64,000 nt of DNA. It comes from Novosphingobium sp. GTDB lineage: Bacteria > Pseudomonadota > Alphaproteobacteria > Sphingomonadales > Sphingomonadaceae. Where the stretch lies: NCBI RefSeq assembly GCF_027489515.1, contig NZ_JAIXZS010000083.1, forward strand, positions 123,686-187,685, read 5' to 3'. Shown in pieces: positions 1 to 12,726 of this stretch (position 1 is the first letter of the stretch; every line of letters starts with the position of its first letter). The notes beneath the pieces are model-generated. The model was not told the origin of the DNA and searched no databases. It was given only the letters and a program-made list of their open reading frames with translations. A program made the translations under genes and the position numbers.

Positions 1-2156
1 GGGCAGACGAAACCACCGAGCGAGGGTCCGTCCGGGCCGAGGATGATCGGCATGTCGCCCGTAAAGTCGACGGCGCCGATGGCGTAGGGGTTATCGTGGA
101 TGTTCGAGGGGTGGAGGCCCGCTTCGCCGCCATCCTTGCGCGCCCAGTGCGGCTTTGGGCCGATAAGGCGCACGCCAGTTCGGTTGGAGTTGTAGTGCAC
201 CTGCCATTCGGCGGCGACGATCATCGCAATATCGTCGGGCGTGAAGAAATCGGGCGCGCCGTGTGGGCCGTAGAGGACCCGCAAGGTCCATTCGTTGCCG
301 AGCGGCGGGAGCGCGGTGGTGGCAAGAGCCGGTTCGACGGGCTCGTCGCCGAGGTGGAGCACATCGCCTGCAACTAGCCGGCGCGCGGCGTGACCGCCGA
401 ACTGGCCGAGTTCGAACGTGGCGCGGCTGCCGAGGTAGGGCGCGATATCGAGGCCGCCCGCGAAGAGCAGGTAGCCGCGCATGCCGCCGCCCCGCGCGCG
501 GCCGAGTGCGAGCGTCTGACCAGCAGCGATGGCGATCACCTGTCCGCGCGGGACGGGGGCGCCATCGAGCGTTGCGCCGAAATCGGCGCCGGTCAGCGCG
601 ACGCGCGCGGGTGCGGTGAATGCGAGGGTAGGGCCCGAATGGGTGAGTTCAAGGCCTGCGGTGCCTTCAGGATTGCCGAGCAGGCGGTTGCCGAGCCGGA
701 ACGACTGGTCGTCCATCGGCCCCGAAGGCGGCACGCCGACCGCCCAGAGGCGCTGGCGGCCGGGCCAGTCCTGCACTGTGGTGGCGGTGCCGCCGCTGAC
801 AACCCGGACGCTGCGCGGGGTGTAGGCAATGGTATCGAGGACGCGGGTCGAGACTTCGCCACTGGTGAAGGCGGGGGAGCGGACAACGTCGCGCAGCCAT
901 CGCAAATTGGTTTCGATCCCGTCGACGCGGGTTTCGCCGAGCGCGGTCTGCATCGCGGTGACGGCAAGGTCGCGCGTCGGCGCGTGGACGATGAGCTTGG
1001 CGAGCATGGGATCGTACCAAGCGGTGACCTCGCTGCCCGCCATGACCCAGGTTTCGGTGCGGATGTCCGCCGGGAACTCTACTGCAGTGAGTGTGCCCGA
1101 GGTGGGGCGGTAATCCAGCGCCGGGTCTTCCGCATAGAGACGGACCTGCACGGAATGGCCGTTTGGCAAGGTTGGCGCCGTGTCGAGGAAGCTGAAATCA
1201 CCTGCGCCGCCGCGCACCATCCATTCGACAAGATCGATCCCCATGACCATCTCGGTCACGCCGTGCTCGACCTGCAGGCGGGTGTTCATCTCGAGGAAGT
1301 AGAACTGCTCGCGCTCGGCATCGTAGAGGAATTCGACCGTGCCGGCATTGCGATAACGCGCGGCTTCACCGAGGCGGATCGCAGCGGTGTAGAGATCCTG
1401 CCTGATCTGCTCGGGCAGCAGCGGCGCGGGGGATTCCTCGACCACTTTCTGATTGCGCCGCTGGAGCGAGCAATCGCGTTCGCCGAGGGCCACGACCCGG
1501 CCTTCGCCATCGCCAAAGATCTGCACTTCGACATGGCGCGCGCGGCGTACGTAGCGTTCCAGGAAGACACCTGCATCGCCGAAGTTGCTCTGGCCGAGGC
1601 GGGCGACGGTAGCGAAGCCTTCCTGCACATCGGCCTGACTTTCGCAGACGCGCATGCCGATGCCGCCGCCGCCGGCGGTCGCCTTGAGCATGACCGGAAA
1701 GCCGATTTCGTTGGCGGCGCCGAGCGCTTCCTTCTCGCTCGTCAGCAGCTCGGAGCCGGGGGCGAGCGGCACACCGTGCGCCTTGGCGAGCGCGCGGGCG
1801 CTGTGCTTGAGGCCGAACATGCGGATGTTGTCGGGCGTGGGGCCGATGAAGACGATCCCGGCAGCGGCGCAGGCTTCGGCGAAGTCGGTGTTCTCGGCCA
1901 GGAAGCCGTAGCCGGGATGGACCGCGCCCGCGCCAGTGACCTTGGCCGCGGCGAGGATCGCGTCGATGTTGAGATAGCTTTCCGAAGGCCGCGCGCCGCC
2001 GATGCAGACTGCCTCGTCAGCCTCGGAGACATGGAGCGAGCCCGCATCGGCCTCCGAATAGACCGCGACCGAGCGCAGCCCCATGCGGCGCAAGGTGCGG
2101 ATGATCCGGGTGGCAATGGCCCCGCGGTTGGCAATGAGGACGGTGTCGAAGCTCAT
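1..2156 (-). CDS. uca: Urea/guanidine carboxylase (biotin carboxylase plus carboxyltransferase domains), 3' end runs off the window
   Basis: Manual translation from ATG at 2156: MSFDTVLIANRGAIATRIIRTLRR...HPGYGFLAEN...GGGGIGM...RDCSLQRRNQKV...FLEMNTRLQVEHGVTE, followed by the AHS2-type HYNSNRTGVRL...NIHDNPYAIG. It is absent from the ORF track, presumably because no stop lies inside the window. DUF1989 neighbours support the call. Confidence 0.93.
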   Translation of the reverse strand, partial: MSFDTVLIANRGAIATRIIRTLRRMGLRSVAVYSEADAGSLHVSEADEAVCIGGARPSESYLNIDAILAAAKVTGAGAVHPGYGFLAENTDFAEACAAAGIVFIGPTPDNIRMFGLKHSARALAKAHGVPLAPGSELLTSEKEALGAANEIGFPVMLKATAGGGGIGMRVCESQADVQEGFATVARLGQSNFGDAGVFLERYVRRARHVEVQIFGDGEGRVVALGERDCSLQRRNQKVVEESPAPLLPEQIRQDLYTAAIRLGEAARYRNAGTVEFLYDAEREQFYFLEMNTRLQVEHGVTEMVMGIDLVEWMVRGGAGDFSFLDTAPTLPNGHSVQVRLYAEDPALDYRPTSGTLTAVEFPADIRTETWVMAGSEVTAWYDPMLAKLIVHAPTRDLAVTAMQTALGETRVDGIETNLRWLRDVVRSPAFTSGEVSTRVLDTIAYTPRSVRVVSGGTATTVQDWPGRQRLWAVGVPPSGPMDDQSFRLGNRLLGNPEGTAGLELTHSGPTLAFTAPARVALTGADFGATLDGAPVPRGQVIAIAAGQTLALGRARGGGMRGYLLFAGGLDIAPYLGSRATFELGQFGGHAARRLVAGDVLHLGDEPVEPALATTALPPLGNEWTLRVLYGPHGAPDFFTPDDIAMIVAAEWQVHYNSNRTGVRLIGPKPHWARKDGGEAGLHPSNIHDNPYAIGAVDFTGDMPIILGPDGPSLGGFVC

Positions 2157-2175
2157 GTGGGATTTCGCGCTCACT

Positions 2176-2304: not shown

Positions 2305-2943
2305 TCATGCCGCGACGATCATGCGCACGGGCGTGGGATTGAAGCCGTTGCAGGGGTTGTTGATCTGCGGGCAGTTCGAGACGACGACGATGACGTCCAT
2401 CTCGGCCTTGAGATCAACGGTTAGGCCGGGCGCGGAGATGCCGTCGACGATGCCGAGCGCCCCGTCCGCTTCCACCGGCACGTTCATGAAGAAGTTGATG
2501 TTGGCGACGATATCGCGTTTGCCGCGGCCTTCGGTGAGGTTGGCTTCGAGAAAGTTTTCCACGCAGGCGTGCTGTGCCTTGGTGTGGTGGCCATAGCGCA
2601 GCGTGTTGCTCTCGCAGGAGCAGGCGCCGCCGATGGTATCGTGGTATTCGACTGTCGTACCGGCGATGGTCATCATCGGGCGGCCCTCGTTCGAGCGCAG
2701 CACGGTGCCGGTGCGCAGGAACAGGTTGCCCTGTGCCGCCACGGTGTCCTGCGCCGAATAGCGCTCGGTATCGTCAGCCTCGCTATAGAGAAGGAAGTCC
2801 ACCGCCTGGTTGCCTTCGAGGTCGACGATGCGCAGCGTCTGACCCTTCTTGATGTGATGGATCCAGGGAGCGCGGGCGGGGACGACTTCGTCATGGACGA
2901 TCGTATCGGGCAGGCCGTCGTGGTGCGGATCGCGGTTGAGCAT
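2305..2943 (-). CDS. cgdB: DUF1989 urea-carboxylase-associated protein 2 (carboxyguanidine deiminase subunit)
   Basis: LRIVDLEGNQAVDFLLY, HDTIGGACSCESN, ACVENF, NINFFMNVPV, VSNCPQINNPCNG. Directly upstream of the carboxylase. Confidence 0.85.
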   Translation of the reverse strand: MLNRDPHHDGLPDTIVHDEVVPARAPWIHHIKKGQTLRIVDLEGNQAVDFLLYSEADDTERYSAQDTVAAQGNLFLRTGTVLRSNEGRPMMTIAGTTVEYHDTIGGACSCESNTLRYGHHTKAQHACVENFLEANLTEGRGKRDIVANINFFMNVPVEADGALGIVDGISAPGLTVDLKAEMDVIVVVSNCPQINNPCNGFNPTPVRMIVAA

Positions 2944-2957
2944 GGGTCAGTCTCCGG

Positions 2958-3797
2958 TCAGCGACGATAGTAGTCTTCGACGTTGAGGAAGGCGCGCAGG
3001 CCCTCCGGCGTCGCGGTGCGGATGGGATCGTCTTCGGCGGCCACCGGCCCGCGCCATGCTGTCGCGCGCAGGGGGGTGACGGTGTAGTCAGGCCGGGGAT
3101 CGAGCACGTGGGGGACGTTGGCGATCACCACGATGACCTCCATCTCGGCGCGCAGGACGACTTCGCGGCCCGGCTCGAAGGGGCCGATCTGCGGCTCGAT
3201 GGTGCCGTCATCGGCAATGCGCGCGCCCTTGAACAGGGTAACGGCGGCGTGGATATCGCGGCGCTGAAGGCCGTGCTTGGCGGCGCCGAGGAGGAAGCGG
3301 TCGCGGCCGTTGGGGAACTGCCCGCTGTTGCGTCCGTCGCCATACTTGGCGGCGTTGGTGTAGGCGTTGGAGGTGCCGGAGAACGTATCGTGCGCGCCGC
3401 CGGTCGTGTCCTCGGCAATGCTCATCAGGACGCGGCCCATATCGGACAAGAGCAGCTTGCCCGCGCCGAGATAGGCGTTCCACTGGATCTTTACCGTATC
3501 GGCAAAGCTGTAGCGCTCGGTCGGCATTTCGGCGTTGAAGATCTGGAAGCTCGCGCAGGCATCGCCCTTCGCGTCTATGAGGCGCAAGCGCGCGCCGCGC
3601 GGCAGGCGGCGGGTGGCGTAGCCGCCGGGGGCCAAGGTTTCCTCCCAGAGCAGGTCGGACGCAGGGACGCCTTCGGGCAGGTCCGGCGCGGCGGGTGGGA
3701 GGACGGGCATCGCCTCCACCACGGTGCCGCCTTGCGCACGGGCGTGATCGCGGGCTGCGTTGGGATTGGCCAGAATTGCTGCGGGCGTTGCGGTCAT
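2958..3797 (-). CDS. cgdA: DUF1989 urea-carboxylase-associated protein 1 (carboxyguanidine deiminase subunit)
   Basis: ERYSFADTVKIQWNAYLGAGKLLLSDMGRVL, ANVPHVLDPRPDY. Paired with the second DUF1989 gene. Confidence 0.85.
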   Translation of the reverse strand: MTATPAAILANPNAARDHARAQGGTVVEAMPVLPPAAPDLPEGVPASDLLWEETLAPGGYATRRLPRGARLRLIDAKGDACASFQIFNAEMPTERYSFADTVKIQWNAYLGAGKLLLSDMGRVLMSIAEDTTGGAHDTFSGTSNAYTNAAKYGDGRNSGQFPNGRDRFLLGAAKHGLQRRDIHAAVTLFKGARIADDGTIEPQIGPFEPGREVVLRAEMEVIVVIANVPHVLDPRPDYTVTPLRATAWRGPVAAEDDPIRTATPEGLRAFLNVEDYYRR

Positions 3798-4267
3798 GCG
3801 GCGGCTCCCTGCGGCGCATCGGCTTCGGGCTCGTAGAGCTGCGGAAGGAGCGCGGTGGTGGTGACGAGTTCGAGCTGCTGGACCCCGCGCACGCGCCGCA
3901 GCGCGTCCGACAGATCCTTGAGACGGGCGGCGGGGCCCTGGACGAGGAGCACCTCGAGCGATTGGTCATCCTCGAGGAAGACGTGCTGCGAGGAGATCAC
4001 TTCCTTGAGATAGTGCGCCTGCGTCTGCGCGAGCTGGTGGCGCACGCGGCCGCGTTCGCCGCGGTAGACGAGCGTGATTGTGCCGGCGAGCATCTCGTCG
4101 GGCCGGGTGAAGGCCTCATGCGCGGCAAGCGCATGGCGGATCAGCTCGGCCATGAGCTGCGAGCGCGAAGGGAGCTGGCGCTCGGTCACCATCATGTCGA
4201 GCTTGCGGAACAATTCGGCCGGAAGGCTCATGCTGAGCCGGGCGAGGCCTGTGGGTTCTGGACTCAT
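3794..4267 (-). CDS. NikR-fold transcriptional regulator (ribbon-helix-helix plus ACT-like domain) with degenerate nickel site
   Basis: ATG at 4267 (MSPEPTGLARLSMSLPAELFRKLD...SRSQLMAELIR) with purine-rich RBS. The C-domain AGTITLVY...QHVFLEDDQSLEVLLVQG aligns by eye to NikR. Stop overlaps the cgdA start. Confidence 0.8.
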   Translation of the reverse strand: MSPEPTGLARLSMSLPAELFRKLDMMVTERQLPSRSQLMAELIRHALAAHEAFTRPDEMLAGTITLVYRGERGRVRHQLAQTQAHYLKEVISSQHVFLEDDQSLEVLLVQGPAARLKDLSDALRRVRGVQQLELVTTTALLPQLYEPEADAPQGAAA

Positions 4268-4280
4268 GGGCTGTTCTCTC

Positions 4281-5060
4281 TCAGCTGGCGGCAGTTGCGG
4301 GCTGGGGCGCGGCTTCCGGCTCCGGGGCCGGGACCGGGGGGCCGCGCAAGGGGAGGTCGTAGACGGCGGTCGCACCGTAGCGGTGCGGCGCGTGGGGATC
4401 GTGGCGGCGCTTGTCGAGCGCAAGGACGCGCGTGCCGAGCGTGAAGGCTTCCTTGATGTCGTGCGTGACCATGACGACCGTGAGCGCATAGTCGCGCCAC
4501 AGGCGGGTGATCAGGCCATGCATGTCGGCGCGAATGCCGGGATCGAGCGCGCCGAAGGGTTCATCGAGGAGGAGGATGCGCGGCCGCTTGATGAGGGCCT
4601 GCGCGATGGCGAGGCGCTGCTGCATGCCGCCCGACATCTGCGCGGGGTAGAGGTGGAGGCTGTCTGCAAGTCCGACCGCTTCGAGCATTTCGGTTGCCTG
4701 CGCCTCGGCCTTGCGACGGGCAGCGCCGAAAAGCCGCGCGGCAAATGGGGCGGCCGGGCATTCGAGGCCGAAGGTGACGTTGCCGAGAACCGTCATATGC
4801 GGGAAGACCGAATAACGCTGGAAGACGACGCCGCGATCGGGCCCGCACTGGGGGGTGAGCGGCTCGCCGTCGAGCAGGATCTTGCCGCGCGTGGGCGCTT
4901 CCTGCCCGAGGATGAGGCGCAGCAGGCTCGATTTGCCCGCGCCCGAGGGGCCGATGATAGAGAGGAAGGCGCCTTCGGCCACCTGGAGGTTGACCTTTTC
5001 GAGCACGACTTTGTCGCCGTACTCCACCCAGACGTTCTTGAGCTGGAGGAGCGCGTTCAT
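4281..5060 (-). CDS. ABC transporter ATP-binding protein (NitT/TauT type)
   Basis: Start MNALLQLKNV at 5060. Walker A GPSGAGKS, signature MSGGMQQR, Walker B LLLDEPFGALD. Confidence 0.93.
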   Translation of the reverse strand: MNALLQLKNVWVEYGDKVVLEKVNLQVAEGAFLSIIGPSGAGKSSLLRLILGQEAPTRGKILLDGEPLTPQCGPDRGVVFQRYSVFPHMTVLGNVTFGLECPAAPFAARLFGAARRKAEAQATEMLEAVGLADSLHLYPAQMSGGMQQRLAIAQALIKRPRILLLDEPFGALDPGIRADMHGLITRLWRDYALTVVMVTHDIKEAFTLGTRVLALDKRRHDPHAPHRYGATAVYDLPLRGPPVPAPEPEAAPQPATAAS

Positions 5061-5872
5061 CTGCCGTCTCCATGGGCCCAGGGGAATGCGCGCTTGCTGA
5101 TCGCGGCGAGCGTCACGTCCATCAGGATGGCAAGCAGCGCGATCCACGCGACGTAAGGGATGATCACGTCCATCGAGAGATAACGGCGGACGAGAAAGAT
5201 GCGGTAGCCGAGACCGATATCGGAGGCGACGGCTTCGGCGGAGATAAGGAAGACCCACGCCGGACCGAGCGCAAGGCGGATCGCCTGGAGGAGGCGCGGC
5301 ATCGCCTGCGGCAGCGCAACGCGGGCGATGATCTGCCACGAGTTGGCCCCGAGGGTCTCGGCCTTGATGATCTGCTCGCGTGGCAGGCTGCCTACATGCG
5401 CGGCGATATCGCGGACCATGACGGGCGCAACGCCGATGGCGATGAGGACGACCTTCGAGGTTTCACCGAGGCCAAGCGCGATGAACAGGATGGGCAGCAG
5501 CGCAATCGGCGGGATCACCGCGATGCCGGTGACCAGCGGGCTCAGCGCTGCGCGCACCGGCGGCAGCGCGCCGATGAGCAGGCCAAGAATAAGTGCGAAC
5601 AGCGTCGCGATGCCAAGCCCCAGTCCGAGCCGCTGGAGGCTGGCAAAGGTATCGGCCCAGAACACGAGGTTGCCCGAAAGCGGATCGGGCGTGGTAAGCA
5701 GATCGGTGATCGCCTTGGCCATCCCGGAGGGGAGCGGGAAGATCTTGTCTGACGGGTTGGCGGCATGGCGCTGCACCGCGGTGATCAGGTAGAACACCAA
5801 GAGCAGCAGGATCGGTGCACCGCCCGCAATCAGGCGGTCACGCCTCGAAAGATGCCAGTTGATCCAGCGCAT
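5057..5872 (-). CDS. ABC transporter permease (NitT/TauT type)
   Basis: Multiple hydrophobic segments and an EAA-like loop (IKAETLGANSWQ). Overlaps the ATPase start. Confidence 0.9.
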   Translation of the reverse strand: MRWINWHLSRRDRLIAGGAPILLLLVFYLITAVQRHAANPSDKIFPLPSGMAKAITDLLTTPDPLSGNLVFWADTFASLQRLGLGLGIATLFALILGLLIGALPPVRAALSPLVTGIAVIPPIALLPILFIALGLGETSKVVLIAIGVAPVMVRDIAAHVGSLPREQIIKAETLGANSWQIIARVALPQAMPRLLQAIRLALGPAWVFLISAEAVASDIGLGYRIFLVRRYLSMDVIIPYVAWIALLAILMDVTLAAISKRAFPWAHGDGR

Positions 5873-5876
5873 GCGC

Positions 5877-6983
5877 TCAGATCTTCCCGTCTGCGGCGAG
5901 CTTCATGAAGCTGTCGTCGAAGCGCAAGGTGACATTGGCCCCATCGCCGAGCGTCTTGCCGCCGGGGAACGCGATGCCGACCGCATCGGCGGAGGTGGCG
6001 CCCTTGAACAAGCCCTTGGAAAAGCTGAAATCGCGCACCCGCGTCATTGTGGTGACCAGCGCAGGGGACTGCGCGGCGGCGACGGCGGCCTTGGGATCTG
6101 TGTATAGGAAGGTCGTCTTTAGCTGGCTGTCGAAGGTTTCGGGCGCGGCGCCGGCGAGCTTGGCCATTGCGGCGCGCGCTGCCTTCCCTTCGGCATCCTG
6201 CCGCATCATCAGTTGCACGGTATCGTACCAGATGCCCGCGAGCGCCTTGCCGAGATCGGGGTTAGCCTTGAGCGTGGCGGTATCGACGACGAGGAGATCG
6301 AGGATCTCACCCGGAATGTCGGCCGAGGAGAACACCTGCGTGACACCGGGTTGCGCGCGCATAACCGAAAGCTGCGGGTTCCACGCAACCGCCGCGGTCA
6401 CATCGGCGCTGGCGAAGGCGCCGACGATATCGGCATCGGCGGTGTTGACCGTCTTCACGTCGGTCATGCCCATTCCGCCCTTTTCCAGCGCGCGGGCGAG
6501 GAGGTAGTGCGAGACCGAGAGCTCCACCAGATTAACCGAGCGGCCCTTGATGGCGCTCAGGCTGGTCGCGCCCTTGAGCAGCACGCCGTCGTTGCCGTTC
6601 GAATAGTCGCCAAGGATGACGGCGGTTGTGTCCTTGCCGCCGGCCGCCGGGATCGTCAGCGCGTCCATGTTGGCAAGGGTGACGCCGTCGAGTTTGCCGG
6701 CGGTGTACTGGTTGATCGATTCGACGTAGTCGTTGACCTGCACGATCTTGATCTTGAGGTGGTATTTGTCCTCCCACTTTTTCACGATGCCGGCCTGCTG
6801 CGCATAGGGCCAGGGCATCCAGCCGGCATAGATCGACCAGCCGATGCTGAATTCGCTCTTCTTTTCAGCCGGAGCATTGCTGCCGCCTGCGCAGCCGCCA
6901 ATTGCAAGCGTTGTAGCAAGCGCTGCGGCAAGGAGAGAACCGGTGAGCGCCCGGCGGGGCCTGGCGGGGGAGGTGTTTGACAC
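5877..6983 (-). CDS. ABC substrate-binding lipoprotein of urea-carboxylase-associated (guanidine) transporter
   Basis: GTG at 6983 preceded by AAAGGAGA. Lipobox-like LAIGGC. WSIYAGWMPW and DYSNGNDG motifs are typical of this SBP family. Confidence 0.85.
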   Translation of the reverse strand: MSNTSPARPRRALTGSLLAAALATTLAIGGCAGGSNAPAEKKSEFSIGWSIYAGWMPWPYAQQAGIVKKWEDKYHLKIKIVQVNDYVESINQYTAGKLDGVTLANMDALTIPAAGGKDTTAVILGDYSNGNDGVLLKGATSLSAIKGRSVNLVELSVSHYLLARALEKGGMGMTDVKTVNTADADIVGAFASADVTAAVAWNPQLSVMRAQPGVTQVFSSADIPGEILDLLVVDTATLKANPDLGKALAGIWYDTVQLMMRQDAEGKAARAAMAKLAGAAPETFDSQLKTTFLYTDPKAAVAAAQSPALVTTMTRVRDFSFSKGLFKGATSADAVGIAFPGGKTLGDGANVTLRFDDSFMKLAADGKI

Positions 6984-7042
6984 GATTCTGTCTCCTTTCG
7001 CAGTGCAGCATTGCGAGAAACAATCCACTTGTCCATGCCAAA

Positions 7043-7070
7043 ATGTTACGTTCCTGAAAAAACGTAATAC
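7043..7070. promoter_or_regulatory. Candidate operator 1, ATGTTA-N16-TAATAC (core TGTTACGT-N10-ACGTAAT)
   Basis: Inverted repeat about 60 bp upstream of the SBP start. Its 6-16-6 geometry matches the E. coli NikR operator GTATGA-N16-TCATAC. A second copy lies at 7273-7300. Confidence 0.6.
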
Positions 7071-7267
7071 CATCTCCATGCAGGGCCGCGCAGATTCGGC
7101 GAATCAGGGGAGGGGTTCGCGGGCATTGTGTTGATTCGGCGCAACGGCTGCAGGCTGTGGTGTGCGCCTTGAGCCGATCGATGCGGCAGTTGCACAGGAA
7201 AAATACCAAGGATTTCCGCAGTGCAGCGGAGGGTGGATAATACCGGGATCGTGTCGAATTATTACGC

Positions 7268-7300
7268 TTGACCTGTTATGTAATATCGATAACGTAACTG
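7268..7300 (+). promoter_or_regulatory. Putative sigma70 promoter TTGACC-N16-TAACGT overlapped by candidate operator 2 (TGTTATGT-N10-ACGTAAC)
   Basis: TTGACC at 7268-7273 and TAACGT at 7290-7295. The palindrome at 7274-7298 has the same half-sites and spacing as operator 1. Confidence 0.55.
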
Positions 7301-7676
7301 AAATGTCGCAGAAGGAGCAATCCTTTGCGGCGCAAGCAACGACATTTCAAGTCAGGCGAATGCTTGTCTGGCGGCGATATTCTGCACGGCACAGTCGATG
7401 CGGGAGCGTTGGTGTGTGTTTTCGGTAATAGTTTGCGAAAGCGGGCAGCAATCACGAGATGATGTATTTGCTGGATGACGGGCCCTTCAGGTCGAATTGC
7501 CTCTTGGTTCATCTGGCGTCTTGAAGAATACGATCGCCTTCATGGTGATTGTGAAGTGAGGGAATGACGACGGCGCCAGAACTGCAAACGGTTCGGCGCG
7601 CCCCGCGCAAAGTGGGCAAACAGGGATGGGGATGTCGCTTCGAGAAGGCTTTCACGCAGGCAACGCGGGGGCTCGA

Positions 7677-10115
7677 GTGACCAAGAAATCTTTCAAGACG
7701 ACACTGGCCAAACAGGCCCTGTTCGGTGCGACGATCCTGATGGGCAGCACCGCTTTTCCCGCATTGGCGCAGATTGCGCCAGAAGCTGCGGGTGACGCGC
7801 CGCAGGCGGCAGCGGTCGAGGACAATAGCGCCATCGTGGTGACCGCCACCCGGCGCGCGACGTCGCTGCAGGACGTGCCGATCAACATCACCGCGGTAAG
7901 CGCCGACCAGCTTGCGCGCCAGCGCATCGACGACGTGCGCGACATCGCCGACTTCACGCCTGGCATCACGATTGCGGACACCGGTCCGGGCTCGACCGGC
8001 ACAATCGTTCTGCGCGGCCTCAACGCCTCCGACTCTGACACGACCGGCGCAACCTATGACAACGCGCTGGGTGTCTATCTCGGCGAAGTCCCGCTCTACT
8101 TCGACTTCAAGATGCTCGATATCGCGCGCGTCGAGACGCTGCTCGGTCCGCAAGGCACGCTCTACGGTCTCGGTACGCTGGCGGGCGCCATCCGCAACAT
8201 CCCCAACCGTCCGGACACGACCAACTACAGCGGGGAAATGCACGGCCGTCTTTACGCCAAGAACCAGGCCTCGAAGGCCGGTTATCAGATCGACGGCGTG
8301 ATCAACATTCCGATCGTGAAGGACCACATCGCCTTCCGCTCGGCGACCGGCTACTATTTTGACCCGGGCTTCATCGATTATCCGCTGATCGTGAAGACGC
8401 CGGGCGTCTCCCTGCCTCAGGCGCCCCGCTCGCCCGCGATCACGCAGGCCTTCGCCGATGCAAACTTCGCCGGGCAGAAGGATCTCAACTATGAGAAGAC
8501 CTTCACCACCCGCAACCAGCTGCTCGTGCAGGTGACGCCCGACCTCTCGGTCGATTTCACTTACGCCTTCCAGCACACCAAGACCGGCGGCGGCCAGTAC
8601 AACAGCAACGGCGTGTTCGGCACCGGCAAGTATGAAAGCGCGGCCCGCTTTGCCGAGCCCGTGGATCGCCGCGCGCACCTCGCCAGCGTGGAGATCAACG
8701 CGAATGTTGCGGAAATCTTCGATCTTGTCGCCACCACGGCCTACACCCAAGTGAAGAACAAGCGGATCGGGGACAACACCGACCTCCTGCTCGATCTCGA
8801 CTATGACTACGAGCTGTTCCCTGCCTTCACCAGCTACAACGAGAGCGAAAACACCCGCAACCAGTTCAACAACGAGGTCCGCCTCGTCTCGACACATGGC
8901 GGGCCGTTCAGCTGGGTGCTTGGCGGGTTCTTCAACGAGCAGAAGCTGCAGGCCGATTACCGCGAACACGTACCGGGCCTGCCCGGCGTCGATCTGGTGC
9001 GTAACCCCGAGGAGATCGAGTACGCATCGTTCAACCGCGCCAAGATCAGCGAGCGCGCGGTGTTCGGCGAGGGTACGTTCAAGATCACGCCGGAATGGCA
9101 AGTCACGGCGGGCGGACGTCTGTTCAACTACACGTCGAAGGTTTCGGGGCGCGCGGTCACGCCGCTGCTGGGCGATCCCATCAGCCCCTATGCCCTCACG
9201 GCAGCCGGCGGGACGTCGCGCAAGGGCGGCAACGTGTGGAAGTTGAACACGTCATACAAGTTCTCGTCGGGCCTGATGCTCTACGCGACCTATAGCAAGG
9301 GCTATCGCATCGGCGGACCCAACACGGTTGCCCCTTGCGTGCTGCCGCTCAAGCCGCCGCCGTTCCAGAACGTCTGCGCGTTGCCGAACGAGCAGCAGTT
9401 TGGCCCGGACTCGACCAAGAACCTCGAGGTGGGTATCCGCGCCGAGCTGTTTGACCGCAAGCTGACCTTGAACATGAACGCGTTCAAGATCGATTGGGAC
9501 GGCATCCAGGTCGCCTCCGCCACGGTCAACGGCATCGTCGGCATCACGGTCAACGGCGGCAAGGCGAAGTCCGAAGGTTTCGAGACCTCGTTCCAGCTGC
9601 GGCCCATCGATGGTCTGTCGATCCAGGGGACCTACTCGTACACGAACGCAAGGCTGACGCAGGACGTTGCCAAGATCATCTCGGTGAACAGCCCGGCCGG
9701 CAAGTATCCCAGCTCGCCGATCCAACTCGACGCGCTGAGCGGTGACCGCCTGCCCGGCTCGACCCGGCACAGCGGCAGCCTTGGTATCAACTACACCAAG
9801 CCAATGCTGGGCGGTGATGTCACCGCCGACTGGACCGCGACCTATCGCGGCGACGTCGTGACGCGTCTTGGCTGGGACCGCGCCTTTGGTGACAAGCTGG
9901 ACGGCTTCATCCTGCACCGCGCTTCGCTGAGCTGGCAGAATGATACGTTCACGTTCGGTCTCTACGCCAACAACATCTTCAACAAGTACGCGGTGACAGC
10001 GATTTCCAACGACCGTTCGCGGATAGGTGTCAACGACGGGGTGCGCCTGCGCTACTTCCGCCGCACCGTGATCACCCCGCGTACTGTCGGACTGGAGTTC
10101 CGGGTGAAGTACTGA
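7677..10115 (+). CDS. TonB-dependent receptor
   Basis: Signal peptide, IVVTATRR TonB-box region, plug signature ETLLGPQGTLYG, aromatic C-terminus EFRVKY. Start uncertain (GTG 7677 or ATG 7626). Confidence 0.93.
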   Translation: MTKKSFKTTLAKQALFGATILMGSTAFPALAQIAPEAAGDAPQAAAVEDNSAIVVTATRRATSLQDVPINITAVSADQLARQRIDDVRDIADFTPGITIADTGPGSTGTIVLRGLNASDSDTTGATYDNALGVYLGEVPLYFDFKMLDIARVETLLGPQGTLYGLGTLAGAIRNIPNRPDTTNYSGEMHGRLYAKNQASKAGYQIDGVINIPIVKDHIAFRSATGYYFDPGFIDYPLIVKTPGVSLPQAPRSPAITQAFADANFAGQKDLNYEKTFTTRNQLLVQVTPDLSVDFTYAFQHTKTGGGQYNSNGVFGTGKYESAARFAEPVDRRAHLASVEINANVAEIFDLVATTAYTQVKNKRIGDNTDLLLDLDYDYELFPAFTSYNESENTRNQFNNEVRLVSTHGGPFSWVLGGFFNEQKLQADYREHVPGLPGVDLVRNPEEIEYASFNRAKISERAVFGEGTFKITPEWQVTAGGRLFNYTSKVSGRAVTPLLGDPISPYALTAAGGTSRKGGNVWKLNTSYKFSSGLMLYATYSKGYRIGGPNTVAPCVLPLKPPPFQNVCALPNEQQFGPDSTKNLEVGIRAELFDRKLTLNMNAFKIDWDGIQVASATVNGIVGITVNGGKAKSEGFETSFQLRPIDGLSIQGTYSYTNARLTQDVAKIISVNSPAGKYPSSPIQLDALSGDRLPGSTRHSGSLGINYTKPMLGGDVTADWTATYRGDVVTRLGWDRAFGDKLDGFILHRASLSWQNDTFTFGLYANNIFNKYAVTAISNDRSRIGVNDGVRLRYFRRTVITPRTVGLEFRVKY

Positions 10116-10254
10116 GCGAAGTACTTCGTTTGGGGGGATGACTGCACAATAGGGGGCGGGGTTGATCCTCGCCCCCGATTGCGCAATCCTGCTGCAGCAA
10201 AGGCTGGCAGCAGAACAGGATAACGAGCAACAACAGGCGAGGAGTTGCAGGGTC

Positions 10255-11145
10255 ATGAGCTTGGGCTTGAAGAAGCTGGCGGTCGATTGCCTTCCGCCCG
10301 CGACATTGGCGGCGGTGGTGGCATTCTGGTATTTCGCGCCTGCTGCAGTGGTCGCGAACCCGTGGACTTCGCTCATCGTCAACGCCGTTGTCACGGCATT
10401 CGTACTCGGCCTCGAACTCGTTTTCGAACGTCACGCCGGTTGGCGGATCAACCGCGAGGAGTTCTTCACCGATCTCTTCTACTTCGTGCTGATCAACACC
10501 GTGATCGGACGGATGGCCTATATCCTTTCCGAAGCACCGCTGCGTTCGCTCAAGGAATCCTGGGGCATCGCGACCCCATGGGTGACTGAGATGCCGTTCC
10601 TCGCCCAGGTCGCGCTTGTCGTGTTCCTGTGGGAATTCGGCCAGTATTGGATGCACCGGCTGATGCACAACTGGGAGCCCTTCTGGCTGACCCATGCACC
10701 GCACCACCACATCACGCAGCTCAATGCCATGAAGGGCGCTGTCGGAAACCCGATCGAGCTGTTCCTGATCAGCCTCGGCATCGTCGCCTTGCTCGACGTT
10801 TCCCCGGCGGCGTACCTCTGCGCGTTTGCCACGACCAACGTGATCGCAACTTATGCCCATGCCAACGTGAAGAGCGATCCGCCGCTGTTCTACAGCTTCT
10901 TCTTCACCACGATCCGCCACCACAGCTTCCACCATTCGGTGGGTTATGAAAACACCCGCTGCAACTATGGCAATTCGCTGATCCTGATCGACCGGATGTT
11001 CGGCACCTACAAGGAAGGTGAGGGCGTGCTTGTCGGACAGGACGACCGCCGGCGGCTGACGATCTGGGAGCAGTTCGTGTTCCCGTTCAAGCCGCTGATC
11101 GAGATGGTGGAGCGGCGCAAGGACAAGTCGTCCGCTGCCGGATAA
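10255..11145 (+). CDS. Sterol-desaturase / fatty-acid-hydroxylase family membrane di-iron enzyme
   Basis: Three His boxes HRLMH, HAPHH, HHSFHH plus transmembrane segments. ATG at 10255 has a GGAG RBS upstream. Confidence 0.85.
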   Translation: MSLGLKKLAVDCLPPATLAAVVAFWYFAPAAVVANPWTSLIVNAVVTAFVLGLELVFERHAGWRINREEFFTDLFYFVLINTVIGRMAYILSEAPLRSLKESWGIATPWVTEMPFLAQVALVVFLWEFGQYWMHRLMHNWEPFWLTHAPHHHITQLNAMKGAVGNPIELFLISLGIVALLDVSPAAYLCAFATTNVIATYAHANVKSDPPLFYSFFFTTIRHHSFHHSVGYENTRCNYGNSLILIDRMFGTYKEGEGVLVGQDDRRRLTIWEQFVFPFKPLIEMVERRKDKSSAAG

Positions 11146-11154
11146 ACCCGCGGC

Positions 11155-12726
11155 GTGAAGGCTGAACCAACCCGCATTGCCGCCGTCCGCCGCGCACTGG
11201 GGCGCAGCGATTTCGCGGCGGCGGAGCAGCTGGCGGCTAGCGTCGTGGCCGCCTTTCCCGAGGATGCCGAAGGCCGGTTCCTGCTTGGCATGGCGCGGGC
11301 AGAGGCTGGGCGCGTCGGGGCAGGGATCGCCGATATTGCCCGCGCGGTCGAACTTGACCCGCGAGGCAGCTACCGCGCGCAGTTGGCGCGGCTGCAGGTT
11401 ATGTTGCGGCAGGATGGGGAGGCTGCGCAGACGCTGGCGGCGGCCGAAAGCGCCTTGCCGGACGATGCGCTGGGCCGCGATACGATGGGCTGCGTCTATG
11501 CCCGGCTCGGCGAACACAAGGCGTCGGTGCCGCATTTTCGCGCGGCGGTGCAACTGGCTCCGGGCAACGTTTCGTTTCGCTACAATCTTGCCGCCGCGCT
11601 CAACTTCATCGGCGATACGGACGGCGCTGAGGTGGAGGCCGAAGCGCTGATCGCGCTCGATCCCGATTATGCGAGGGGCCATCACATGCTGGCCGGGCTT
11701 CGCAAGGTCAGTGCCGAGCGGAACCATGTCGAGCGGCTGACGGCGGCATTGGCGCGCGCGCAGGCAGCTGATGCACGGTTGCTTCTGGGCTATGCGCTGG
11801 CGAAGGAGCTCGAGGATATCGGCGAGCAGCAAGGGGCGTTCGCCCGGCTTGCTGAGACGAATGCCGAGCACCGGGCGCGGCTGCCTTATGTATTCACGCG
11901 CGACGGCGCCAATTTCGACGCGATCGAGCGGACCTGGCCGCGCCTAGTGCAGGCGCCGGTGCGGGGGGCTCCGCAGGATGCGCCGATCTTCGTGATCGGG
12001 ATGCCGCGCACCGGCACGACGCTGGTGGACCGCATCCTCTCCTCGCATCCCGAAGTGTGGAGCGCGGGCGAGCTGCAGGCGATGCCGCTGGCGGTGAAGA
12101 TGGCAGCAGGGACGCGCAGCCGCGTGGTGCTCGATCCCGAGACGCTGGAGGCAGCAGCGAGCGCCGATCTCGGCGCCATCGGGCGTGATTATCTGGCACG
12201 GGCGCGCACCCACGCCGGGGCGCGCGAGGGGCGTTTTGTCGACAAGTTTCCGGGGAACTTCCAGTACGCCGGGTTTATCGCGCGGGCGCTGCCCGAGGCG
12301 CGAATCGTGTGCCTCAGGCGCCATCCGCTCGATACGGTGCTGGCGAACTTCCGGAACCTCTTCGCGATCTCGTCGCGCTATTACGACTACAGCTACGACC
12401 TCATGGACATTGCGCGCTACTATGTGCGGTTCGATCGGCTGATGGCACTCTGGTGCGAGGCGCTGCCGGGCCGGATCCTCGAGCTTGGTTACGAGGATCT
12501 GGTGGCGGATCAGGAAGGCGGGACGCGCGCGCTGCTAGCGCATTGCGGGCTGGCATGGGATGCGGCCTGCCTCGATTTCCACCGCAACACCGCGCCGGTC
12601 TCAACCCCGAGCGCAGCGCAAGTGCGGCGGCCGATGTACAAGGATTCGGTGGCGCGCTGGACGAGGCACCGGGACACGCTGGCCCCGGTGATCGCATACT
12701 TCGAGATGGAAGGGATCGCTATCTAG
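11155..12726 (+). CDS. TPR-repeat-containing sulfotransferase family protein
   Basis: N-terminal TPR-like helices. 5'-PSB loop IGMPRTGTTLVDRIL, DKFPGNF, RHPLDT, and C-terminal TPSAAQVRRPMY. Confidence 0.85.
   Translation: MKAEPTRIAAVRRALGRSDFAAAEQLAASVVAAFPEDAEGRFLLGMARAEAGRVGAGIADIARAVELDPRGSYRAQLARLQVMLRQDGEAAQTLAAAESALPDDALGRDTMGCVYARLGEHKASVPHFRAAVQLAPGNVSFRYNLAAALNFIGDTDGAEVEAEALIALDPDYARGHHMLAGLRKVSAERNHVERLTAALARAQAADARLLLGYALAKELEDIGEQQGAFARLAETNAEHRARLPYVFTRDGANFDAIERTWPRLVQAPVRGAPQDAPIFVIGMPRTGTTLVDRILSSHPEVWSAGELQAMPLAVKMAAGTRSRVVLDPETLEAAASADLGAIGRDYLARARTHAGAREGRFVDKFPGNFQYAGFIARALPEARIVCLRRHPLDTVLANFRNLFAISSRYYDYSYDLMDIARYYVRFDRLMALWCEALPGRILELGYEDLVADQEGGTRALLAHCGLAWDAACLDFHRNTAPVSTPSAAQVRRPMYKDSVARWTRHRDTLAPVIAYFEMEGIAI

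Follow-up and report, generated by a model that had tools for sequence, protein, structure and literature searches.

A NikR-like protein without the nickel site is encoded in a guanidine carboxylase operon of Novosphingobium sp. and may regulate it

A contig of Novosphingobium sp. (GCF_027489515.1, NZ_JAIXZS010000083.1, positions 123,686–187,685 of the forward strand) contains, inside an operon for guanidine carboxylation, the gene of a protein that has kept the fold of the nickel-responsive regulator NikR and has lost its nickel site. This stretch of 64,000 nt (64 kb) is referred to below as the window, and all coordinates are those of the window. We infer that this protein, independently of Ni, represses both the operon and a divergent receptor unit and is released from DNA by a guanidine-type compound; the chances of this model appear evenly balanced. 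The features on which the analysis is based are the following:

3–2174, minus strand: biotin-dependent urea/guanidine carboxylase, truncated at the window edge to its N-terminal 724 aa (TIGR02712, 1158.8 bits)
2305–2943, minus strand: UAAP2, DUF1989 protein of CgdB type (TIGR03424, 336.9 bits vs. cut-off 284.7)
2958–3797, minus strand: UAAP1, DUF1989 protein, CgdA-type carboxyguanidine deiminase subunit (TIGR03425, 294.7 bits vs. cut-off 206)
3794–4267, minus strand: NikR-like regulator, 157 aa, with RHH, NikR_C/ACT-like domain and the family-specific C-terminal tail ALLPQLY
4281–5060, minus strand: ABC ATPase (uca-type), its ATG at 5060 overlapping the permease stop as ATGA
5057–5872, minus strand: ABC permease (NitT/TauT type)
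5877–6983, minus strand: periplasmic binding protein of the ABC importer (SBP, uca-type; TIGR03427, 520 bits)
7044–7069: predicted proximal operator, TATTAC-N14-GTAACA, one mismatch, 61–86 nt upstream of the SBP start
7260–7285: predicted distal operator, perfect TATTAC-N14-GTAATA
7626–10115, plus strand: divergent TonB-dependent receptor, which most related loci also have upstream of the operon

The regulator gene starts with the ATG at 4267, 13 nt after the ATPase stop, and its stop codon (3794–3796) forms an ATGA overlap with the cgdA start at 3794–3797. The NikR_C domain (PF08753) was detected with an E-value of 4.1e-21 (75.4 bits vs. cut-off 22), and the Pfam RHH_1 score of 19.3 bits was slightly below the cut-off of 20.5. 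The RHH domain of NikR was nevertheless found, since HMMER aligned the protein to it from residue 8; its helices lie at 17–29 and 35–54 in the AlphaFold2 model, and R10, S12, and S14 are the conserved residues of its strand. The coordinates and the Pfam matches bear out the earlier note on this DNA, which had described an RHH plus ACT-like protein between the ABC ATPase and cgdA, overlapping the cgdA start. All NCBIfam models of NikR matched the regulator, each below its curated equivalog cut-off (NF003381, 91.9 vs. 105; NF002815, 57 vs. 83; TIGR02793, 54.5 vs. 175). No second NikR_C protein was found in the window's own genome.

An AlphaFold2 monomer model built on a 37-sequence alignment reached a pLDDT of 84.4 and superseded a poor single-sequence model (pLDDT 59). 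The top 50 PDB fold matches of this model were all NikR, and the C-domain alone was superimposed by Foldseek on NikR structures with TM-scores of 0.85–0.92 and an rmsd of 1.3–1.9 Å. The regulator therefore shares with the solved NikR structures (2bj1/2bj3, 1q5v/2hzv, 6mrj) the two-domain architecture of RHH and a beta-alpha-beta-beta-alpha-beta C-domain. Its closest sequence among them is P. horikoshii NikR (2bj1; E = 2.6e-22, ~38% identity by HMMER). By analogy with NikR, it is presumably a homotetramer.

The high-affinity square-planar Ni site of NikR is formed by H76′, H87, H89, and C95 (E. coli numbering). At these positions, the regulator has A/H/F/S instead of H/H/H/C. HMMER alignment to E. 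coli NikR (1q5v) gave H76→A, H87 kept, H89→F, and C95→S, and the alignment to P. horikoshii NikR led to the same four outcomes; an earlier by-eye alignment to the E. coli protein was reproduced exactly. With three of the four ligands replaced, the high-affinity site is absent, and there is no cysteine in the 157 aa. Residues at the former Ni-site positions across the non-Ni branch are A/S/T/R, H/R/N, F/L/Q/H, and S/T/V/R, respectively. No replacement pocket common to the branch was found at these positions and no conserved polar pocket emerged.

The family is large. More than 2,000 close relatives of the regulator, named “CopG family” or “nickel-responsive regulator” in the source, were recorded, a profile search returned at least 5,399 clusters, and 818 proteins matched in a library of 1.8 billion representatives. 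The alignment was made from the 118 best-listed of these 818 matches that had suitable length, and the tree from the 112 covering most of the query. In this tree, 38 H-H-H-C representatives formed one side (SH-aLRT 94), and 70 proteins with other signatures at the Ni-ligand positions formed the other. H76, H89, and C95 were invariant and H62 was 95% conserved among the 38 canonical NikRs, whereas all four ligand positions and H62 were variable among the 70 non-Ni representatives. The H87 equivalent was retained in 37 of the 70, as in the window's regulator, and some cgd-linked members have none of the four ligands (RRLL, RRLV, RNLS). Family-specific features are Q110, E89, P112, and the C-terminal tail LLPPLH, which distinguishes the regulator's branch from most canonical NikRs; both the C-domain and this tail are strongly conserved across thousands of sequences. 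Judging from these alignments, the regulator is a member of a large sister branch of canonical NikR with relaxed Ni ligands. The scores below the NikR cut-offs and the separate non-Ni side of the tree are the outcome of the comparison by HMM and phylogeny that had been proposed in the earlier note as a check.

The operon is read from the minus strand in the order SBP, permease, ATPase, regulator, CgdA, CgdB, carboxylase; the likely SBP start is the GTG at 6983, located after the RBS AAGGAGA. In a locus with a 99% identical regulator (L001), the carboxylase is complete, and allophanate hydrolase comes after it. The paired DUF1989 proteins of CgdA/CgdB type, both scoring above their cut-offs, are a feature of the guanidine carboxylase pathway; the carboxylase may prefer guanidine over urea. 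One more DUF1989 paralogue, the third and a more distant one (TIGR03424, E = 5e-29), is encoded in the window's genome away from the operon, at G000:C33:93192-93746. We compared 80 related loci from species genomes, with regulators of 77–100% identity, mostly from Sphingomonadaceae with a few labelled Betaproteobacteria. The complete set from SBP to carboxylase was kept in all 80, with the cgd genes and carboxylase placed convergently in two of them.

Linkage extends to distant relatives. Among ten diverse non-Ni representatives (30–61% identity), nine were found in or beside DUF1989 or uca-type ABC genes: six (P0130, P0137, P0144, P0126, P0175, and P0228) directly before DUF1989 genes, P0147 and P0157 divergent to uca-type binding-protein genes, and P0153 3′ of an ABC ATPase, its contig stopping shortly beyond the regulator. 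For the tenth, P0222, the contig is too short to show the gene context. On the non-nickel side of the tree, the linked members are spread over at least four subclades. These counts (80/80 and 9/10) answered the synteny survey with DUF1989/uca that had been suggested for this gene. Instead of genes for nickel uptake or nickel enzymes, the regulator has a biotin carboxylase, CgdAB, and a uca-type ABC importer as neighbours, and a urease alpha subunit was not found in the window's genome.

The palindrome TATTAC-N14-GTAATA, with one mismatch allowed, occurred twice in the 4.29-Mb genome, both times in the control region of the operon, while the reversed pattern used as a control gave no matches in the same 4.29 Mb. 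The exact palindrome was present in 73/73 upstream regions of related loci. At the proximal site, the half-sites were invariant and the 14-nt spacer was free to vary in all 72 loci compared, a pattern that indicates a protein-binding site. Relatives of 30–61% identity, among them an AT-rich genome and one of Methylobacterium type, also have the palindrome ahead of the operon or of the regulator. As in NikR, the site is an inverted repeat of ~26–28 bp with half-sites about two helical turns apart. Its core, TTAC-N14-GTAA, is also the core of GTGTTAC-N13/14-GTAACAC, the predicted NikR box of delta-proteobacteria (PMC545781), and the R-x-S-x-S residues of the regulator's DNA-reading strand are those of P. 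horikoshii NikR. The shared core and strand suggest that the DNA-binding module was inherited unchanged and that the sensor part alone has changed. Taken with the fold, the lost Ni ligands, the operon position, and the ligand positions that vary throughout the branch, an operator that travels with the regulator supports the proposal of the earlier note that a NikR scaffold was repurposed away from nickel. In two other Sphingomonadaceae, an extra operator-like site with one mismatch lies between the ATPase and the regulator (L083, 8330–8355; L084, 8715–8740), and its position before the regulator points to an internal promoter under autoregulation. The window lacks this extra site, the two genes being only 13 nt apart there.

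A scan of 6900–7700 for the sigma-70 consensus found no promoter, and the promoter-like pairs described here were identified solely through cross-species conservation. On the plus strand, the distal operator spacer holds TTGACC, the −35-like hexamer of a divergent TonB-receptor promoter, with −10-like TAACGT 16 nt further on. In 54 loci, the spacer likewise contains a conserved −35 TTGAC(G/C), and a −10-like TA(C/A)CGT lies 16 nt past the hexamer. A protein bound at the distal operator should therefore block the receptor promoter, and the TonB receptor is predicted to belong to the same regulon. The proximal operator ends 8 nt before a promoter-like TGGACA-17-AATGCT in the window and 7–9 nt upstream of a conserved TGGACA-17-(G/A)ATGCT in 66 of 72 loci. 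If the latter is the promoter, the proximal site would be centred near −57, an activator-like position, and such a centre is compatible with activation as well as with the blocking of an upstream element. The operator of other lineages is found 15–35 nt from a start codon, in one of them with TATAAT in the operator spacer, and this arrangement fits repression. A sigma-54 promoter, seen by eye at TGGCAT/TGGACA, was rejected because no GC element is present at the required 10–11 nt.

The leader 3′ of the proximal operator (6984–7036, minus strand) is strongly conserved as TGGACA, a 17-nt spacer, (G/A)ATGCTGCACTGCGAAAGGGGA, and the start codon; it may consist of promoter and RBS alone or also hold a site for a second regulator. 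On the other side, ~330 nt without Rfam match (7296–7625) separate the predicted receptor promoter from the receptor ATG at 7626, and a perfect 10-nt inverted repeat, TGAAATGTCG/CGACATTTCA, is located there at 7299–7308 and 7340–7349. The divergent unit (7626–12726, plus strand) encodes the TonB-dependent receptor, a membrane di-iron protein of the FA_hydroxylase family, and a TPR-sulfotransferase. The hydroxylase was found near the cgd operon in 46 of the 80 related loci, and in ~6 of these 46 it is apparently the immediate divergent neighbour of the binding-protein gene, without an intervening receptor. It may for this reason share the regulon, possibly with a role in processing a guanidino compound.

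In the model that we favour, the protein would be the dedicated regulator of the operon that encodes it, and its RHH domains would, by analogy with NikR, read the two half-sites of TATTAC-N14-GTAATA through R10, S12, and S14 of the beta-strand. One operator would lie just upstream of the operon promoter and the second over the core promoter of the divergent unit of TonB receptor and, perhaps, membrane hydroxylase. Without substrate, the protein would occupy its operators and both units would be repressed; a guanidine-type compound bound in the C-terminal ACT-like domain would release it. It would thus perform the task of the guanidine riboswitches of most other bacteria. The analysis shows the fold, the loss of the Ni site, the operon linkage, and the conservation and specificity of the operator; repression, the nature of the effector, and whether the operon promoter is controlled negatively or positively are proposals. 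In canonical NikR, it is the presence of the ligand that leads to DNA binding, contrary to this inducer model.

That property is preserved in a different scheme, in which the protein is a ligand-activated dual regulator: a guanidine-type ligand would promote binding, the protein near −57 would activate a weak operon promoter, and the same form would repress the TonB-receptor promoter. The position of the operator 7–9 nt upstream of TGGACA-17-(G/A)ATGCT in 66/72 loci agrees with it, as do the two hexamers, both off consensus as in activator-dependent promoters, and the overlap of the distal site with a near-consensus −35. We nevertheless consider the dual scheme unlikely. An operator 15–35 nt from the start codon, as in other lineages, must overlap the core promoter; an alternative promoter inside the operator (TGnTAATAT) is possible in many loci; and opposite control of an uptake receptor and the neighbouring catabolic operon is hard to rationalise.

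The choice of guanidine as the signal draws on the distribution of riboswitches. No Rfam family was detected at gathering score in the 64-kb window, and the window's genome gave no match to guanidine-I or guanidine-II. A sample of 301 genomes of the phylum contained 32 with true CgdB, and a sample of the class added 14, giving 46 in total. In the phylum sample, guanidine-I was present in 28 of the 32, mostly beside the operon, and the remaining four genomes (that of the window, two more from its family, and one from another family) coincided exactly with those in which a NikR_C gene lies within or close to the operon. The class sample of 14 comprised nine genomes with guanidine-I, one with an adjacent NikR-like gene (from a third family), and four with neither. 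Guanidine-II was detected just before cgdA in one of these last four and in the Methylobacterium-type genome, in a genome search that scored part of its guanidine-II candidates. Altogether, 37 of the 46 genomes had guanidine-I, one guanidine-II only, four the regulator only, one the regulator and guanidine-II, and three neither; these counts lack phylogenetic independence, as a single family supplies three of the five genomes that have a linked regulator. A linked regulator (5/46) never occurred together with guanidine-I (0/46), and neither riboswitch was detected in four of the five. Strict mutual exclusivity of regulator and riboswitch was rejected, since guanidine-II is present in the Methylobacterium-type operon that has the regulator. 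The co-occurrence in this lineage makes it less certain that guanidine itself is the ligand, and the protein and guanidine-II may read different signals there.

A NikR-like protein with its own operators, usually standing in the riboswitch's place, is a candidate for the first protein switch of this pathway. A more specific version, which we propose tentatively and with the balance somewhat against it, is that the branch is the first protein class to sense free guanidine (guanidinium). Binding of this cation would take place at or close to the former Ni site at the tetramer interface, where a small residue at position 76, an aromatic one at 89, and nearby carboxylates could accommodate it, and would switch DNA binding at TATTAC-N14-GTAATA operators.

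Alternatively, the same regulator may respond to an effector other than guanidine, either a nitrogen-sufficiency co-repressor at the ACT-like domain or a precursor or intermediate of the pathway. Candidates include an amino acid, an ammonium-derived signal, urea, carboxyguanidine, allophanate, and methylguanidine- or creatinine-type compounds. ACT-like domains typically bind amino acids, which speaks for such an effector, and a co-repressor would preserve the logic of NikR, in which the ligand promotes binding. The residues of the former Ni site differ between clades, and a related operon with guanidine-II also has creatininase-family, type III GS-like, and cupin genes, suggesting another signal there. 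On the other hand, no other specific sensor was detectable in the window's clade, and the regulator stands immediately before cgdA, the position of guanidine-II riboswitches in two other sampled genomes. It is also confined to cgd/uca operons and not spread over general nitrogen genes. We therefore regard a non-guanidine effector as a rather poor prospect.

Still less probable is an autoregulator that binds no ligand, its C-domain serving for tetramerisation only and the protein setting a basal operon level, with induction coming from other systems such as Ntr control. This would agree with the absence of a conserved polar pocket in place of the Ni site and with a gene inside the operon that the protein would control. 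Against it stand the strong conservation of the C-domain and the LLPPLH tail over thousands of sequences and the finding that guanidine-I never accompanied a linked regulator in the sample, which argues for signal-specific control by the regulator.

Finally, the protein may still be a metal sensor that binds Ni or another metal at an alternative site (the H87 equivalent, H85, acidic residues) and turns on a Ni-independent carboxylase when nickel is scarce. TonB receptors and Ni-sparing isozymes are part of the regulon of H. pylori NikR. Although the H87 equivalent is retained here and in 37/70 non-Ni representatives, and genes of both kinds belong to NikR regulons elsewhere (PMC545781), we consider a metal sensor extremely improbable: H76, H89, and C95, present in 100% of canonical NikRs, vary in the branch, some cgd-linked members have none of the four ligands, the regulator lacks cysteine, urease was not found in the genome, and the operator occurs at the operon locus only in 4.29 Mb.

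Compared with canonical NikR, the preferred Ni-independent repressor keeps the architecture and the DNA-reading strand and differs in its relaxed ligand positions and in its predicted regulon, which comprises the guanidine carboxylase operon and a TonB receptor instead of nickel uptake and nickel enzymes. H. pylori NikR has dual action, activating ureA from an upstream site and repressing TonB receptors at core promoters. The predicted sites in the window have the same layout, an upstream site at a nitrogen-catabolic operon and a core-promoter site at a TonB-receptor gene; the regulator differs from the H. pylori protein in having no nickel site and serving another pathway, with a sign of regulation that is proposed here from site positions. 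With the guanidine-I (ykkC) and guanidine-II (mini-ykkC) riboswitches it shares the gene set that it is predicted to control. Unlike them, it would be a protein acting on operators in promoter DNA and not an RNA leader, with a guanidine-type compound as its proposed ligand.

According to a 2025 review, riboswitches are the sole receptors known for guanidine other than transporters and enzymes, and guanidine-binding regulatory proteins are still to be found (PMC12186494). Our literature search on NikR-like proteins together with guanidine, urea carboxylase, or carboxyguanidine deiminase found no paper on the regulator's family; papers containing both NikR and “urea carboxylase” used the terms in unrelated passages. 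With its defined operator and regulon and its thousands of natural variants, the family is a concrete candidate that can be tested, and it represents a metal-sensor scaffold reused in a non-metal pathway. If the model holds, a guanidine-sensing protein would be the counterpart of the guanidine riboswitches, and biosensors would gain a useful part from a protein switch that responds to guanidine-type compounds, taken together with its operator. The database label “nickel-responsive regulator”, together with members that score above the NCBI NikR cut-off, would mislead predictions of nickel regulons.

Such a member was found in the Methylobacterium-type locus (L082; G048:C1:4458000-4477900). There, a divergent NikR-like gene precedes genes for binding protein, permease, and ATPase, followed by a creatininase-family gene, a type III GS-like gene, a cupin, the guanidine-II riboswitch, CgdA, CgdB, carboxylase, and allophanate hydrolase. 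The regulator encoded there has the signature R/H/H/T and passes the NCBI NikR cut-off (112.6 vs. 105), and the NCBI name “nickel-responsive transcriptional regulator NikR” given to its close relatives is probably a misannotation.
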